Assembly: GCF_003334335.1 (NCBI RefSeq)
Contig: NZ_QOWQ01000044.1
DNA from: Escherichia coli
Lineage (GTDB): Bacteria > Pseudomonadota > Gammaproteobacteria > Enterobacterales > Enterobacteriaceae
Length of the DNA: 35,113 nt
Reading direction: 5' to 3' (one strand)
Below are positions 17,610 to 35,113 of the stretch, piece after piece. The notes under the pieces are model-generated. The model had not been told where the DNA came from and ran no database searches. It worked only from the letters and a program-made list of their open reading frames with translations. Position 1 is the first letter of the stretch; each line of letters opens with the position of its first letter. Both the position numbers and the translations under genes were made by a program.

Positions 17610-18893
17610 TCAACGTTTGTAATCGATGGCTTCTGGCTGCTCCAGATATACGGTGGTTTGTGCCGGTTGTGTGCTGGCAATCACCTTGCCGCCACGTACC
17701 GAATAACGTACCGGAACCTGACGGCGCAGCGCATCAAACCCATTTTCAGCCGGCAGGATAATCAGGTTGGCGCTGTTTCCGGCGGCAATGCCGTAATCCT
17801 GCAAATTCAACGTCCTTGCGCTGTGGTGGGTGATTAAATTCAGGCCATCGTTAATCTGCCCGTAGCCCATCAACTGGCAAACATGCAGCCCCATATGCAG
17901 CACTTGCAGCATATTCGCCGTTCCCAGCGGATACCACGGATCGAAGACATCATCGTGACCAAAGCAGACGTTAATGCCGGACTCCAGCATCTCTTTAACG
18001 CGCGTGATGCCGCGACGTTTTGGATACGTATCGAAACGTCCTTGCAGATGAATATTGACCAGCGGGTTGGCGACAAAGTTAATACCGGACATTTTCAGCA
18101 AGCGGAACAGGCGTGAGGTATACGCCCCGTTATAGGAGTGCATTGCCGTGGTGTGGCTGGCGGTGACTCGCGCGCCCATGCCTTCATGGTGCGCCAGGGC
18201 AGCAACGGTTTCGACAAAGCGCGACTGCTCGTCATCGATCTCATCACAGTGAACGTCGATGAGACGGTCGTATTTTTGCGCCAGGGCGAAGGTTTTATGC
18301 AGCGACTCCACGCCGTATTCACGGGTAAATTCAAAATGCGGAATCGCCCCCACTACATCTGCCCCTAAGCGTAACGCCTCTTCCAGCAACGCTTCACCGT
18401 TGGGATACGACAAAATCCCTTCCTGAGGGAAGGCGACGATTTGCAGATCAATCCACGGCGCGACTTCCTGCTTCACTTCCAGCATTGCTTTCAGCGCAGT
18501 TAGCGTTGCATCCGAAACATCGACATGGGTACGCACATGCTGAATGCCGTTGGCAATCTGCCATTTCAGCGTTTGCCATGCGCGTTGTTTCACATCGTCA
18601 TGGGTTAATAACGCTTTGCGCTCGGCCCAGCGTTCAATGCCTTCAAACAGCGTGCCGGACTGATTCCAGTTCGGTTGTCCGGCGGTTTGCGTGGTGTCCA
18701 GGTGAATATGTGGCTCCACAAACGGCGGTATAACTAAACCTTGTTCGGCATCCAGGCTGTTTTCAGTTATGGGCATCACGCCGGATTGCGCATCAATGGC
18801 GCTGATTTTTCCGTCCTGCAGATGAATCTGCCACAGCCCCTCTTCGCCTGGTAACCGGGCGTTAATAATTGTTTGTAAAGCGTTATTCGACAC
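17610..18893 (-). CDS. codA: cytosine deaminase (amidohydrolase superfamily)
   Basis: ORF track gives 432 aa from 18908; GTG at 18893 gives the 427-aa [14 protein letters not shown]... product; HIHLD metal-binding motif; overlaps codB stop by 11 bp. Confidence 0.93.
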
Positions 18894-31037: not shown

Positions 31038-32087
31038 TCAGTCTGTTAGTGTGCGATTATCGATAACAAAACGATATTTCACATCACCGCGCAGCATTCG
31101 CTCATAGGCTTCATTAATTTGATCGGCCCGAATCATCTCTATATCAGCCACGATGCCATGTTCGGCGCAAAAATCGAGCATCTCCTGAGTTTCTGGAATG
31201 CCGCCAATCATAGAACCGGCTATCGCACGGCGTTTCATGATCAGGTTGAAAACTTCCGGCGATTTATGCGGTGTCGCAGGCGCACCAACCAGCGTCATGG
31301 TGCCATCACGCTTCAGCAAGGTGGTAAAATCGTCGAGATTATGTGGCGCAGCTACTGTATTCAAAATGAAATCGAAACTCTTCAGATGAGCCGCCATCTC
31401 ATCGGCATTGCGTGAGTTAACAACTTCATCGGCCCCCAGGGCTTTTGCCGCTTCGCGTTTTGCCTCAGAAGTGGTAAATGCCACCACATGTGCCCCCATC
31501 GCGTGGGCCAGCTTAATCCCCATATGTCCCAGACCGCCGATGCCGACCACGCCCACTTTTTTACCCGGCCCGGCCTGCCAGTGACGTAGCGGCGAATACG
31601 TGGTGATCCCTGCACACAACAAAGGAGCCACCGCCGCCAGCTGCTCTTGCGGGTGACGAATACGCAGAACATATCGCTCATGAACGACGATCTGTTGTGA
31701 GTAGCCGCCCAGAGTATGGCCCGGTTCGTCCGGCGTCGGCGAGTTATAGGTGCCGGTCATGTGATCACAGTAGTTTTCCAACCCGTCTTCACACTCTTCG
31801 CAATGTTTACAACTGTCGACAATGCAGCCGACACCGACCAGATCGCCCGGCGCATATTTTTCTACCTGATCACCAACGGCTACCACACGCCCCACAATTT
31901 CATGACCCGGCACGCAGGGGTAAACCGTCCCCGCCCACTCGGAACGGACCTGGTGGAGATCGGAATGGCAAACGCCACAGTAAGCGATTTCGATTTTGAC
32001 ATCATTCGGTCCCGGTTCACGCCGGGTGATATCCATCGGTTCAAGTGGTTGTTTAGCGGAATATGCACCAACAGCTTTGATCTTCAT
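31038..32087 (-). CDS. yahK: NADPH-dependent aldehyde reductase (zinc-type alcohol dehydrogenase)
   Basis: 349-aa ORF with the zinc-ADH signature GHEIVGRV, structural-zinc cysteine cluster and GxGGLG cofactor loop. Confidence 0.94.
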   Translation of the reverse strand: MKIKAVGAYSAKQPLEPMDITRREPGPNDVKIEIAYCGVCHSDLHQVRSEWAGTVYPCVPGHEIVGRVVAVGDQVEKYAPGDLVGVGCIVDSCKHCEECEDGLENYCDHMTGTYNSPTPDEPGHTLGGYSQQIVVHERYVLRIRHPQEQLAAVAPLLCAGITTYSPLRHWQAGPGKKVGVVGIGGLGHMGIKLAHAMGAHVVAFTTSEAKREAAKALGADEVVNSRNADEMAAHLKSFDFILNTVAAPHNLDDFTTLLKRDGTMTLVGAPATPHKSPEVFNLIMKRRAIAGSMIGGIPETQEMLDFCAEHGIVADIEMIRADQINEAYERMLRGDVKYRFVIDNRTLTD

Positions 32088-32463
32088 TGTGTTTACTCCT
32101 GATTAGCTATGTGTATTTGGCAACGCCTGATATGTCATCGCGGCAAAACGCGTCCATTGAATATAGCCAATATTTAAACCACCCGATCCAGCCCCAACAT
32201 GCCGCGAGCCTGAATGAAACAGAGCAGCAACGTTCCCCATAAGGCGAGCGCCTGTAAGTGTGATATTTGCTATCTGTAAAAGACTAAAATCGGCAAAACT
32301 GATGATCTTTTCACGTAGACAAATAGTTATCTACACAACGTCAATAAGGGCATATTCCTCAAAGATAATGTCCATTTCTGCCGACACACTCATATTCAGA
32401 TTGCCCCACTCCCTGGGGCTTAAATCTCTTACTATTCACCGTTGCAGGCGTTTCAAATGCGCA

Positions 32464-33846
32464 TCAACCTGCCACACTCCCCCACACCAGTTGCCCTTTA
32501 TGGAACGTTGCGGTTCTCGGCGAGATACGCGCCACCGCCTCGGCGGAACAGGAGGCGTCCACCAGCACAAAGCTGGCGTCATCCTGCGCTTTTGGCCATA
32601 CACGCTCGCCTTTTTCATTCAGCGGCAATACATCGCCAGTGGCTAAAAACAGCGAGCGGGAGAGGTTCTGTTCGTTAGGACGAATATAGAGCTGCGCGTA
32701 CAGATTGGCTTTTTCCAGCATGTCGCCCAGACCATAAGGCGACCAGTGGTCGATAACGCTGTCAGTGCCAGTCATCACTTTTACGCCTTTGTCGTGCAAC
32801 TGTTTGAGCGGCATATGCAGCGTGCCAATCGGCACCGTCGAGGCGATAGAAATTTGTTGCACCACCATCCGGTTCGCCAGTTCATCTACCTGTTGCTCGT
32901 TGAGCGTTGCCAGCGCAAAGGCGTGACTGATGGTCAGCTTGCCCTTCAGCTGTGGCGTTTTCTCTACCGTTTCAACCATATAATTGATGGCTGCCACGCC
33001 TGCCGGAGTGGTTTCGTGCAGGTGAATATCGACGCCTTTGTCGTAGTCCAGCGCAATCTGGAACATGGTGTCGAGGGATTTTTCCATCGCGCCATCAACA
33101 CTGGTCGGGTCCAGGCCGCCGACGTAATGCGCCCCCGCCTGCATCGCTTCACGCATTAAAGGTTCAGATTTCGACAGCAGCAAACCGTGCTGCGGGAAGG
33201 CGACGATTTCACACTCAAAGCCCGCCTGACGTCGCGCCAGCACCGCCTGCAAATTTTGCAGATTTTTCAGGCCGGAAACCGGTTCGATATTGCAGTGGCT
33301 GCGGGCAATGGTGGTGCCTTTCGACTGCAATAAATCAATCAGTTTTTCTGCCCGCTCCTGAGTGTACGGTTGCAGTTCCGGCAGCATTTTCTGCTCGAGT
33401 TTGATCATGTCCTGGATGGTGGTGCCTGCCGGACGATTGAGCGAGCGCCACGGCCCGCCGTAAAAGGTTTTGTCGAGATGAATATGCATGTCGCGGGTGG
33501 TGGGCAGCATCAGCTTACCGCCAGCGTCATAGTGCGGCAGCGTGGCGTCCGGATGCAGCTTGTTCTCGCGCAGGGCGACAATTTTGCCGTCCTGAATCTC
33601 CACGGTCTGGCGCGCCGTGCGGGTCTGCACCGCCACGCCATTTTCGTAGTCAAAACCGGTTTCCAGCAGCACGTTATCGAGATAGTAATGCGGGTCAGTG
33701 ATTTTCATGGTGTTGTTCGCTTCGCAGTTTAGGGTGCCAGCTACCGCCGCATGGGCGAGCGGCACAGAGGTACCAAACAGCGCGGCGGCGGTGACCATCT
33801 TACCGCTCTGGCTCAGAAATTCACGGCGGCTATTGCTTTCTTTCAT
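32464..33846 (-). CDS. yahJ: amidohydrolase-superfamily deaminase with Tat-type signal peptide
   Basis: 460-aa ORF; N-terminus MKESNSRREFLSQSGKMVTAAALFGTSVPLAHA has a twin-arginine motif, hydrophobic core and AHA cleavage site; HIHLD metal motif shared with CodA. Confidence 0.9.
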   Translation of the reverse strand: MKESNSRREFLSQSGKMVTAAALFGTSVPLAHAAVAGTLNCEANNTMKITDPHYYLDNVLLETGFDYENGVAVQTRTARQTVEIQDGKIVALRENKLHPDATLPHYDAGGKLMLPTTRDMHIHLDKTFYGGPWRSLNRPAGTTIQDMIKLEQKMLPELQPYTQERAEKLIDLLQSKGTTIARSHCNIEPVSGLKNLQNLQAVLARRQAGFECEIVAFPQHGLLLSKSEPLMREAMQAGAHYVGGLDPTSVDGAMEKSLDTMFQIALDYDKGVDIHLHETTPAGVAAINYMVETVEKTPQLKGKLTISHAFALATLNEQQVDELANRMVVQQISIASTVPIGTLHMPLKQLHDKGVKVMTGTDSVIDHWSPYGLGDMLEKANLYAQLYIRPNEQNLSRSLFLATGDVLPLNEKGERVWPKAQDDASFVLVDASCSAEAVARISPRTATFHKGQLVWGSVAG

Positions 33847-33855
33847 CTTAAGTCC

Positions 33856-34806
33856 TTACGTTTTAATAATATGAGTGCCCGTTTCGCCGCGCAGCGCCGC
33901 AGGCAGGCATTCCGGCGTGGTGATAATCACTTCTTTGCCGCCTTGTTCTAAAAATGTCAGGCTGGCGATGATTTTTGGCAACATGCTGCCGGGCGGGAAA
34001 TGCCCTTCCTGCATATAGCGGGTCATGGTGGCAATATCCACCCGATCGAGCGCCTGCTGCTGCGGTTTGCCAAAGTGAATACACACTTTTTCGACGCCAG
34101 TGGTGATCACAAGAATGTCGGCGTGAATTTCACGGGCCAGCAGCGCGGTAGAGAGATCTTTGTCGATAACCGCGTCCACGCTTTGGTAATCTCCCGCGTC
34201 AGTACGCACTACCGGAATTCCACCGCCGCCCGCGCCAATTACGACAAAACCTTGTTGGATCAGCGCTTTAATGGCAGGTGCTTCGACAATACGTTTCGGT
34301 TCCGGCGAGGCGACCACGCGGCGATAGCCCCGCCCGGCATCTTCAACAAAACACCAGTCAGGGTTTGCCTTTTGTAATTCGTCACGCTGGCTGTCACTAA
34401 AGAATGCGCCGATGGGCTTGGTGGGATGGGCAAAACCTGGATCGTTTTTATCCACTTCCACCTGAGTCACCACGGTGACGGCTTTCTTCTCGCCGTGACG
34501 CGCCAGCCGGTTATTCAGCGCCTGTTGGATCAGATAGCCGATGCCGCCCTGCGTATCTGCCACACAGTTCGCCAGCGGCGTTAAGGGCAGCCCTTCGCGC
34601 TTGTGGGCAATCTCCGCACGGCGTAAATCCAGCCCGACCTGCGGCCCGTTGCCGTGGGTCAGCACAATGTCGTAATCGGAAGCCAGCATTTCCAGCACCG
34701 TATCGGCGACGGCTTTCACCGCCTCCGCCTGATGCTCAATCGACTGGCTGGCGTTATCTTTGATAATGCTGTTGCCACCAATGGCAACGACCACAAGCTC
34801 TTTCAT
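33856..34806 (-). CDS. yahI: carbamate kinase-like protein
   Basis: 316-aa ORF beginning MKELVVVAIGGNS... (amino-acid kinase fold); stop lies 9 bp upstream of the yahJ start, so the two are probably co-transcribed. Confidence 0.92.
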   Translation of the reverse strand: MKELVVVAIGGNSIIKDNASQSIEHQAEAVKAVADTVLEMLASDYDIVLTHGNGPQVGLDLRRAEIAHKREGLPLTPLANCVADTQGGIGYLIQQALNNRLARHGEKKAVTVVTQVEVDKNDPGFAHPTKPIGAFFSDSQRDELQKANPDWCFVEDAGRGYRRVVASPEPKRIVEAPAIKALIQQGFVVIGAGGGGIPVVRTDAGDYQSVDAVIDKDLSTALLAREIHADILVITTGVEKVCIHFGKPQQQALDRVDIATMTRYMQEGHFPPGSMLPKIIASLTFLEQGGKEVIITTPECLPAALRGETGTHIIKT

Positions 34807-34855
34807 GTTGTTATGTCCGCTACAGAGGGTGATGGGGTTATGACCAACGCCAGAC

Positions 34856-35113
34856 TGCCTGATGCGCTACGCTTATCAGGCCTACAATTCTCGCGCCACT
34901 CGTAGGCCGGATAAGGCGTTCACGCCGCATCCGGCAATGGTGACAAATGCCTGATGCGCTACGCTTATCAGGCCTACAGATTCTCGCGCCACTCGTAGGC
35001 CGGATAAGGCGTCCACGCCGCATCCGGCAGTGGTGGCAAATGCCTGATGCGCTACGCTTATCAGGCCTACAGATTCTTGCGCCATTCGTAGGCCGGATAA
35101 GGCGTTCACGCCG
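34856..35113. repeat. Tandem BIME array (92-93-bp period) upstream of yahI
   Basis: Unit starts at 34856, 34948 and 35041; array is truncated by the window end. Confidence 0.9.

Follow-up and report, generated by a model that had tools for sequence, protein, structure and literature searches.

A conserved twin-arginine signal peptide on YahJ, a CodA- and AtzC-like amidohydrolase of Escherichia coli

In Escherichia coli, yahJ codes for a mononuclear-metal amidohydrolase of the cytosine-deaminase/AtzC subgroup that carries a twin-arginine translocation (Tat) signal peptide at its amino terminus. We examined it in a 35,113-nt E. coli contig (NZ_QOWQ01000044.1, assembly GCF_003334335.1), hereafter the window, whose numbering is used for all positions. 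A Tat signal in front of a CodA-like amidohydrolase is established annotation in K-12 and will not surprise the specialist; YahJ has stood on published lists of Tat substrates since 2003. What is added here is comparative: the conservation of the signal in 80 orthologues, the tatA-tatC neighbours of Bacillaceae homologues, the signal-less relatives in Bacillales, and a gene set that reaches from Enterobacterales to Neobacillus. We consider it likely that YahJ is a Tat-exported periplasmic deaminase of an aminated nitrogen heterocycle, linked to a carbamoyl-phosphate pathway. YahJ is among the few E. coli Tat substrates without a known role, and the comparative picture points to a class of substrate, aminated nucleobase-like rings. 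The gene and the parts of its product are as follows.

32464..33846, minus strand: yahJ coding sequence, 460 codons plus stop, ATG start (open reading frame list, K-12 annotation, NCBIfam NF005312/PRK06846)
33748..33846, minus strand: twin-arginine signal peptide, residues 1-33, MKESNSRREFLSQSGKMVTAAALFGTSVPLAHA, predicted cleavage after A33 (rule check, TatP 1.0 in PMC7549933, low AlphaFold2 confidence over residues 1-45)
33814..33831, minus strand: Tat consensus S6-R7-R8-E9-F10-L11; R7, R8 and F10 invariant in 80 of 80 orthologues
33691..33747, minus strand: variable linker, residues 34-52, between cleavage site and folded core; 39% conservation, missing from signal-less homologues
32464..33690, minus strand: amidohydrolase body, residues 53-460, an N/C-terminal beta-sandwich plus a (beta/alpha)8 barrel (AlphaFold2, Foldseek, Pfam)

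The product of the yahJ open reading frame (ORF) begins with MKESNSRREFLSQSGKMVTAAALFGTSVPLAHAAVAG. The initial annotation had read a twin-arginine motif, a hydrophobic core and an Ala-x-Ala cleavage site here, and all of these features are present. With respect to the consensus S/T-R-R-x-F-L-K, the position of the lysine is taken by S12. The amino-terminal region of the signal has a net charge of +2, the hydrophobic region (h-region, residues 17-30, MVTAAALFGTSVPL) is uncharged and weak as in Tat signals, with a mean Kyte-Doolittle value of about 1.5, and A31-H32-A33 constitutes the A-x-A site for signal peptidase I. Signal-peptide prediction, named in that annotation as a check, has a published answer: TatP 1.0, applied to an extraintestinal pathogenic E. 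coli (ExPEC) strain, calls the same 33-residue Tat peptide (PMC7549933). A lipoprotein reading of Cys41 was rejected, since T-L-N, the residues at -3 to -1 ahead of it, do not form a lipobox. To control for chance we used a crude Tat rule, which asks for RR-x-hydrophobic-hydrophobic within 35 residues, followed by a hydrophobic 12-mer free of charge and by A-x-A. The six frames of the window contain 275 ORF starts at a Met with 100 aa or more; of these the rule passes only the yahJ start and two internal methionines that sit within a transmembrane segment of yahN.

Orthologues were sampled at one genome per species, which gave 80 loci from gamma- and alphaproteobacteria at 59-98% identity. Each of the 80 retains x-R-R-x-F-[L/I] with a hydrophobic stretch after it. 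R7, R8 and F10 are 100% conserved in the alignment, A33 (position -1) 90% and A31 (position -3) 78%, and mean conservation is 39% in the 19 residues after the cleavage site vs 83% in the mature core. This pattern of a conserved targeting signal followed by a drifting spacer indicates, at the level of the alignment, that the signal is kept by purifying selection.

Two properties of the signal count against a route through Tat alone. Between the h-region and A33 there is neither Lys nor Arg, and the basic Sec-avoidance residue of the c-region, frequent in Tat signals though not obligatory, is thus absent. This agrees with the second point, the reported promiscuity of the YahJ signal sequence (ssYahJ), which has served as an export tag: one article describes ssYahJ as mediating periplasmic translocation of reporters in E. 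coli and as usable by Tat and the general secretory (Sec) system alike (PMC6788121, citing Tullman-Ercek 2007). YahJ could accordingly be exported mainly by Sec, unfolded, with its metal acquired in the periplasm and the twin arginines tolerated and not required, a route that would also suit the h-region hydrophobicity of 2.0-2.2 found in some orthologues. However, Sec has no need of the twin arginines and F10 that are invariant in 80 of 80 orthologues, the h-region of the E. coli protein is weak, and Bacillaceae homologues have a dedicated tatA-tatC pair beside them. We therefore regard Sec as an unlikely main route.

A different fate of the signal is suggested by the linker that follows it, which is long, variable and disordered as in tethered enzymes, and which in the Bacillales forms is a Lys-rich stretch of 25-30 residues. 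If the signal were left uncleaved, it would tether YahJ, as a Tat protein anchored by its N-terminus, to the inner membrane on its outer face. We think this very unlikely, given the conservation of alanine at -1 and -3 and the TatP cleavage call after AHA. In Vibrio natriegens, moreover, an ssYahJ fusion gives a smaller periplasmic band that its authors read as signal cleavage (PMC6788121), and Cys41 offers no lipobox for an anchor of the other kind.

A question remains, is export the rule or the exception among relatives of YahJ? A family search of 1.84 billion cluster representatives gave 167 proteins at E <= 1e-30. Among about 90 full-length representatives at 50% identity, a twin-arginine signal is found in about seven (P0122, P0123, P0126, P0134, P0146, P0214, plus P0125 with SRKGFL), whereas the majority have about 400 residues and begin directly at the 'YWLxNVRLE' core. 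The initial annotation had called a periplasmic location unusual for this family; this is correct as a count of representatives, but not as a description of lineages, since a whole proteobacterial clade and a Bacillales clade consist of exported forms. In Bacillales the signal-bearing proteins have 466-478 residues and the pattern 'SRRKFLGN..KIGGASAVLGV', followed by the Lys-rich linker. Signal-less proteins of 406-426 residues, 70-78% identical to them, start at 'MLLNVRLE', and one of these, P0315, looks from its sequence like a case of a decayed signal. The coexistence of both forms argues that the signal was gained or lost more than once. Judged by these sequences, one and the same chemistry evidently serves inside the membrane and outside it.

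The neighbours of the Bacillaceae homologues bear directly on the route of export. The Priestia aryabhattai homologue (51% identical, on 14 contigs, signal FSRRRFIS) is directly followed by a 60-aa TatA/E gene and then by a 248-aa TatC gene (locus L006, 9001-11438), and is divergent from a Xan_ur_permease gene. The same order, yahJ-tatA-tatC, occurs in Bacillus pseudomycoides (locus L012, 586-3170); the homologues of the two species are 50-51% identical to YahJ and carry SRRRF/SRRKF signals. Such adjacency is hard to explain unless the amidohydrolase is a cargo of Tat. In the phoD-tatAd-tatCd locus of Bacillus subtilis a cargo gene adjoins its dedicated translocase, and the Priestia and B. pseudomycoides loci resemble it in this respect. 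The likeness concerns the Bacillaceae homologues and not E. coli, and the dependence of these cargoes on their Tat pair would be presumed from position. Within the sequenced flanks of the Neobacillus and Paenibacillus homologues no tatAC genes were found. We also observed, directly upstream of the B. pseudomycoides homologue, a second amidohydrolase gene that is cut by the contig end.

That most representatives of the family have no signal, and that Bacillales relatives 70-78% identical to exported forms start at the core, could be taken to mean that the twin arginines of YahJ are a coincidence or a relic, and that the E. coli protein is cytoplasmic like CodA and most of the family. This is highly improbable. 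The signal is conserved across gamma- and alphaproteobacteria, homologues adjoin tatAC, the crude Tat rule proved selective in the window, and export of reporters by ssYahJ is described in the literature.

We turn to the enzyme itself. The residues expected in its active site, and the gene of the cytoplasmic paralogue used for comparison, are these.

33472..33486, minus strand: H121-I-H123-L-D125, the HxH metal ligands on strand 1, then K126; H121, H123 and D125 invariant in 70 family members
33013..33024, minus strand: H275-L-H277-E278, metal ligand H275 and catalytic Glu, aligned with CodA H214 and E217; H275 and H277 invariant
32923..32925, minus strand: H308, the His of strand 6, aligned with CodA H246; at least 90% conserved
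32761..32763, minus strand: D362, the Asp of strand 8, metal ligand and general base, aligned with CodA D313; invariant
17610..18893, minus strand: codA, cytoplasmic paralogue (ORF list)

Pfam matches YahJ to Amidohydro_3 and Amidohydro_1, and the NCBIfam model NF005312/PRK06846, a family without an assigned function, scores 712.7 bits against a cut-off of 447. This profile starts at residue 49 of YahJ and thus excludes the signal. An AlphaFold2 model built on an alignment of 70 sequences has a mean predicted local distance difference test (pLDDT) value of 91.5 over all 460 residues; the means of 10-residue blocks run from 87 to 99 from residue 51 on, and residues 1-45 are of low pLDDT and disordered. 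Foldseek places the model with AtzC, CodA and 5-methylcytosine deaminase at a probability of 1.00. Its template modelling (TM) scores, normalised to the target, are 0.88 for 6nbo, 0.85 for AtzC, 0.79 for 5-methylcytosine deaminase and 0.74-0.75 for CodA. By sequence, matches in the PDB rank alike: 6nbo, a Burkholderia protein annotated as AtzC, at 1.9e-43, AtzC at about 1e-30 (E = 4.4e-30) and CodA at 1.9e-16.

The mononuclear site of the cytosine-deaminase type is complete in YahJ, with HxH, a His on each of strands 5 and 6, Asp on strand 8 and HxxE after strand 5. Strand 4, VAFPQHG, contains no Lys and hence no candidate for a carboxylated lysine. Invariant across the 70 family members are H121, H123, D125, Q219, H275, H277 and D362. 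The alignment assigns H121, H123, H275 and D362 as the predicted metal ligands, E278 and H308 as the predicted proton shuttles, and Q219 to the predicted substrate pocket. The HIHLD motif pointed out in the initial annotation is therefore where it was said to be, at H121-D125, and the proposed common fold with CodA is borne out by the TM-scores and by the alignment of the catalytic residues. CodA (PDB 1K6W) H61, H63, H214, E217, H246, D313 and Q156 correspond to YahJ H121, H123, H275, E278, H308, D362 and Q219. The two differ at CodA D314, which is S363 in YahJ, and in location, CodA being cytoplasmic and without a signal peptide. Distant paralogy to the codA gene of the window, also claimed earlier, is recovered by BLASTP at 26% identity over 323 residues (E = 8e-22). 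Bit scores of YahJ on the CodA models lie far under their cut-offs (PRK09230, 80.8 vs 483; PRK07572, 101.2 vs 438; PRK07583, 67.3 vs 403), which marks it as a paralogue and not a CodA.

The nearest solved relatives, on these sequence and structure matches, are of AtzC type and not CodA, and YahJ appears orthologous to neither. AtzC, the N-isopropylammelide isopropylaminohydrolase (2QT3, 4CQB), and 6NBO are its best matches in sequence and fold and have the same mononuclear site, HxHxDK, His, His and Asp. However, they are only 22-28% identical to YahJ (22% for AtzC), the AtzC-type PDB chains align from about residue 104-107 of YahJ, and AtzC has HIHD where YahJ has HLHE, with Glu as in CodA.

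The likeness to AtzC raises a doubt about the substrate and not about the location. YahJ might act in the same compartment on a ring other than a nucleobase, of s-triazine or ureide type (ammelide- or ammeline-like, a guanidino or creatinine-type ring), as an AtzC-like dealkylaminase that feeds a carbamoyl pathway of biuret or allophanate type. In addition to the nearest structures and the common HxHxDK motif, this would fit the occurrence of allFGHK genes together with triuret and biuret genes in nitrifiers (PMC12625717). Yet the HLHE of YahJ is that of CodA and not the HIHD of AtzC, the neighbouring permeases are of nucleobase-type families, and the loci examined showed no genes for cyanuric-acid or biuret hydrolases. 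Such a substrate is possible, though we find it the more doubtful choice.

Of the established E. coli Tat substrates that lack redox cofactors, SufI, AmiA, AmiC, CueO, MdoD and FhuD have the same S/T-R-R-x-F-L-type signal, weak h-region and A-x-A site, and YahJ is listed beside them in tables based on TatP and TATFIND; it differs from them in that its support comes only from the signal peptide fused to reporters. As the 'putative deaminase' b0324 it figures in a TATFIND-based comparison, built on Dilks 2003, of the Tat substrates of E. coli and Salmonella (PMC3027627). In a mouse model of ExPEC infection, a strain deleted for yahJ showed a small fitness defect, with a competitive index of 0.70 (p = 0.02; PMC7549933). 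The E. coli 'y-ome' of uncharacterised genes still includes YahJ, YahE, YahG and YahI (PMC11551758).

CodA uses Fe2+ and AtzC uses Zn2+. In the model of a Tat-exported deaminase that we favour, YahJ would fold and take up one of these metals in the cytoplasm, TatABC would carry the folded enzyme across the inner membrane, and the signal would be cut after A33, so that the mature protein would begin with AVAGTL. In the periplasm a metal-bound hydroxide would take the place of an amino or alkylamino group on an aminated nitrogen heterocycle, presumably nucleobase-like with a cytosine- or ammelide-like ring, and release ammonia or an amine. Where the locus is complete, the oxo-product would be imported by an AzgA-like 'xanthine permease', here called X, whose gene lies between yahG and yahI. 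YahEFG, a paralogue of AllFGH, would then split a ureido or carbamoyl end-product to carbamoyl phosphate, from which YahI would make ATP, CO2 and NH3. In K-12 and most E. coli, where X is absent, YahJ would rely on another transporter or mainly release ammonia outside the cytoplasm. If the model is true, it describes a periplasmic deamination step in the scavenging of nitrogen heterocycles and gives a function to the paralogue of a recently solved carbamoyltransferase, AllFGH.

The pathway part of this model comes from the neighbourhood of yahJ. Searching the 80 orthologue loci with the K-12 Yah proteins (tblastn), we distinguish four architectures.

Architecture A, LysR (divergent) and yahD-yahE-yahF-yahG-X-yahI-yahJ: Citrobacter, Yokenella, Serratia, Buttiauxella, Atlantibacter, Providencia, Budvicia, Zophobihabitans
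Architecture A with YahE undetected: Enterobacter, Lelliottia, Leclercia
Architecture B, as A without X: Escherichia, Pseudocitrobacter, Kluyvera, Raoultella, Klebsiella, C. amalonaticus
Architecture C, LysR and yahD-yahJ only: Cedecea, Erwinia, Pluralibacter, Enterobacter sp. Ag1, Pragia
Architecture D, yahJ alone or with a LysR gene: Xenorhabdus, Photorhabdus, Shewanella, alphaproteobacteria

Many Enterobacterales, and also Aeromonas, have the gene order yahD-yahE-yahF-yahG-X-yahI-yahJ. The set returns, rearranged, in another phylum: Neobacillus niacini has yahJ with its twin-arginine signal, AllH-, AllF- and AllG-like genes, an esterase on the other strand, X, a 392-aa protein with ankyrin and tetratricopeptide repeats, and a carbamate kinase. 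Its X is 69% identical to that of Serratia, and X proteins of Proteobacteria and Firmicutes are 65-75% identical in general. The same gene set in shuffled order in two phyla argues for a shared pathway. Citrobacter, Serratia and Neobacillus, which retain the permease, are the better hosts for assigning a function.

What that pathway might produce is suggested by the anaerobic allantoin pathway. AllFGH is an oxamate carbamoyltransferase that converts oxalurate and phosphate to oxamate and carbamoyl phosphate, and AllK is a catabolic carbamate kinase (PMC11326118, PMC9843812). The Yah proteins belong to the same families, YahE to AllH/DUF2877, YahF to FdrA, YahG to AllG/DUF1116 and YahI to the carbamate kinases; they differ in being paralogues, and the all locus has no Tat-exported amidohydrolase.

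Several findings weigh against the favoured model, in addition to the two properties of the signal given above. The literature search found no experiment on the location, bound metal or substrate of native YahJ. YahJ often occurs without yahEFGI (architectures C and D), so that the pathway link is optional. The operon contains no ring-opening enzyme, which leaves the route from a heterocycle to a carbamoyl compound incomplete. Nucleobases enter the model only through what the neighbouring permeases are called and the families they belong to. X is a polytopic membrane protein of 515-516 aa (locus L009, 5942-7492; locus L003, 6300-7847) that NCBI, UniRef and JGI name xanthine permease or AGZA-family xanthine/uracil permease; these source annotations and one precomputed PF00860 match are all that tie it to nucleobase permeases. 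X gave no Pfam match even at E <= 10, no NCBIfam match and no PDB sequence match, and its BLASTP comparison with the Priestia Xan_ur_permease was not significant. Lastly, an E. coli IncFII plasmid (NZ_JBVWEU010000002.1, 2107-10540; locus L095) carries LysR and yahD-allH-like-fdrA-ylbE-like-X-carbamate kinase without yahJ, in a cassette flanked by remnants of insertion sequences.

A wider claim is more tentative: YahJ could be the extracytoplasmic first step of a cross-phylum module of seven genes (LysR, in K-12 yahB, YahD, YahEFG, the AzgA-like permease, YahI and YahJ), with YahD perhaps a cytoplasmic chaperone or inhibitor that acts before export, and with the K-12 module truncated by loss of the permease. 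A tblastn search for X in E. coli K-12 found no trace of it, and its position is occupied by yahH (window 34807-35113), filled with repetitive extragenic palindromic (REP) elements. Across complete E. coli genomes the X gene is present in 142 of 5426, and 106 of its 152 places are on plasmids.

YahD, an ankyrin-repeat protein of 201 aa without a signal, adjoins yahJ where yahEFGI are missing, in Pragia, Cedecea, Erwinia, Pluralibacter and a soil contig (locus L010, 8010-10401; locus L002, 1497-3611; loci L055, L059 and L061-L063). Among the loci of architecture D, a yahD-like gene lies downstream of yahJ in Microvirga and in one soil contig. The two genes are neighbours in roughly 55 genomes. 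As the one protein that accompanies YahJ in minimal loci, YahD may be its partner, for example a chaperone or an inhibitor.

Despite the absence of the permease, yahJ of E. coli is still held by strong purifying selection. The ratio of non-synonymous to synonymous substitution rates (dN/dS) of yahJ is 0.045-0.05 against E. albertii and Pseudocitrobacter, both of which are also without X. Loss of yahJ by pseudogenisation after loss of the permease was rejected as a general account: dN/dS is about 0.05, and of 5426 complete E. coli genomes 5036 (93%) contain at least 80% of the 2.8-kb yahJ stretch. K-12 MG1655 matches the region at 100% identity, and its annotation names the genes yahJ, yahI and yahH.

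Some E. coli alleles are damaged. Alleles P0009, P0011-P0014 and P0032 encode proteins of 414-434 aa with in-frame internal deletions of 29-46 residues, which remove segments of the core between residues 139 and 310; some of the deletions lie between short repeated peptides (GTTI...GTTI, QAG...QAG). H308 is lost in P0009 and P0032, H275 and E278 also in P0032, and Q219 in P0012 and P0013. To judge from the residues removed, the minority of strains with such alleles probably make an inactive enzyme. The genus Pseudocitrobacter presents another irregularity. In P. faecalis (loci L015 and L016) the proteins of yahF, yahG, yahI and yahJ are 95-98% identical to those of E. coli, yahD and yahE only 56-71%, and the synonymous divergence (dS) of yahJ from E. 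coli is 0.32. The uneven identities together with this dS suggest recombination or transfer of part of the operon between genera.

In the window, yahJ follows the carbamate-kinase-like gene yahI on the same strand.

33856..34806, minus strand: yahI, carbamate kinase family, 316 aa, without a signal peptide (ORF list, RefSeq annotation)
33853..33857, minus strand: Shine-Dalgarno sequence AAGGA of yahJ, overlapping the yahI stop codon, with a 6-nt spacer to the ATG (sequence read)

Orthologues of yahI score 519-574 bits on the NCBIfam carbamate kinase model PRK12352. The yahI stop codon (33858-33856) and the yahJ ATG (33846-33844) leave a gap of 9 nt, as first noted, and yahI and yahJ share one reading frame. 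From this arrangement of stop codon, ribosome-binding site and start codon, yahJ reads as translationally coupled to yahI. According to K-12 annotation, yahJ is the last gene of a same-strand run yahD-yahE-yahF(fdrA-like)-yahG-yahH-yahI-yahJ, named the yahDEFGIJ operon in PMC4765031. A promoter and terminator scan of 32050-35113 gave nothing above the shuffled expectation. A query of 2.8 kb (32300-35113) finds a median of 34 matching places per E. coli genome, which fits with dispersed REP elements, such as have been noted in the yahH region (PMC11551758). The intergenic region between yahJ and yahK contains a 75-bp pseudogene fragment at 32174-32248 ('hypothetical protein, missing N-terminus'; RefSeq; locus L001, 8875-8949).

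Public data also contain three proteins of 779-780 aa (P0003-P0005) that combine a carbamate-kinase-type domain (Pfam PF00696) with the amidohydrolase domains of YahJ. The spacing between yahI and yahJ (33844-33858) corresponds to a stop codon plus three codons, in frame. The lengths of the three proteins fit a yahI-yahJ fusion by read-through after loss of the stop codon; each is a singleton and may also reflect a sequencing error. A fusion of this kind, if real, would bury the Tat signal internally.

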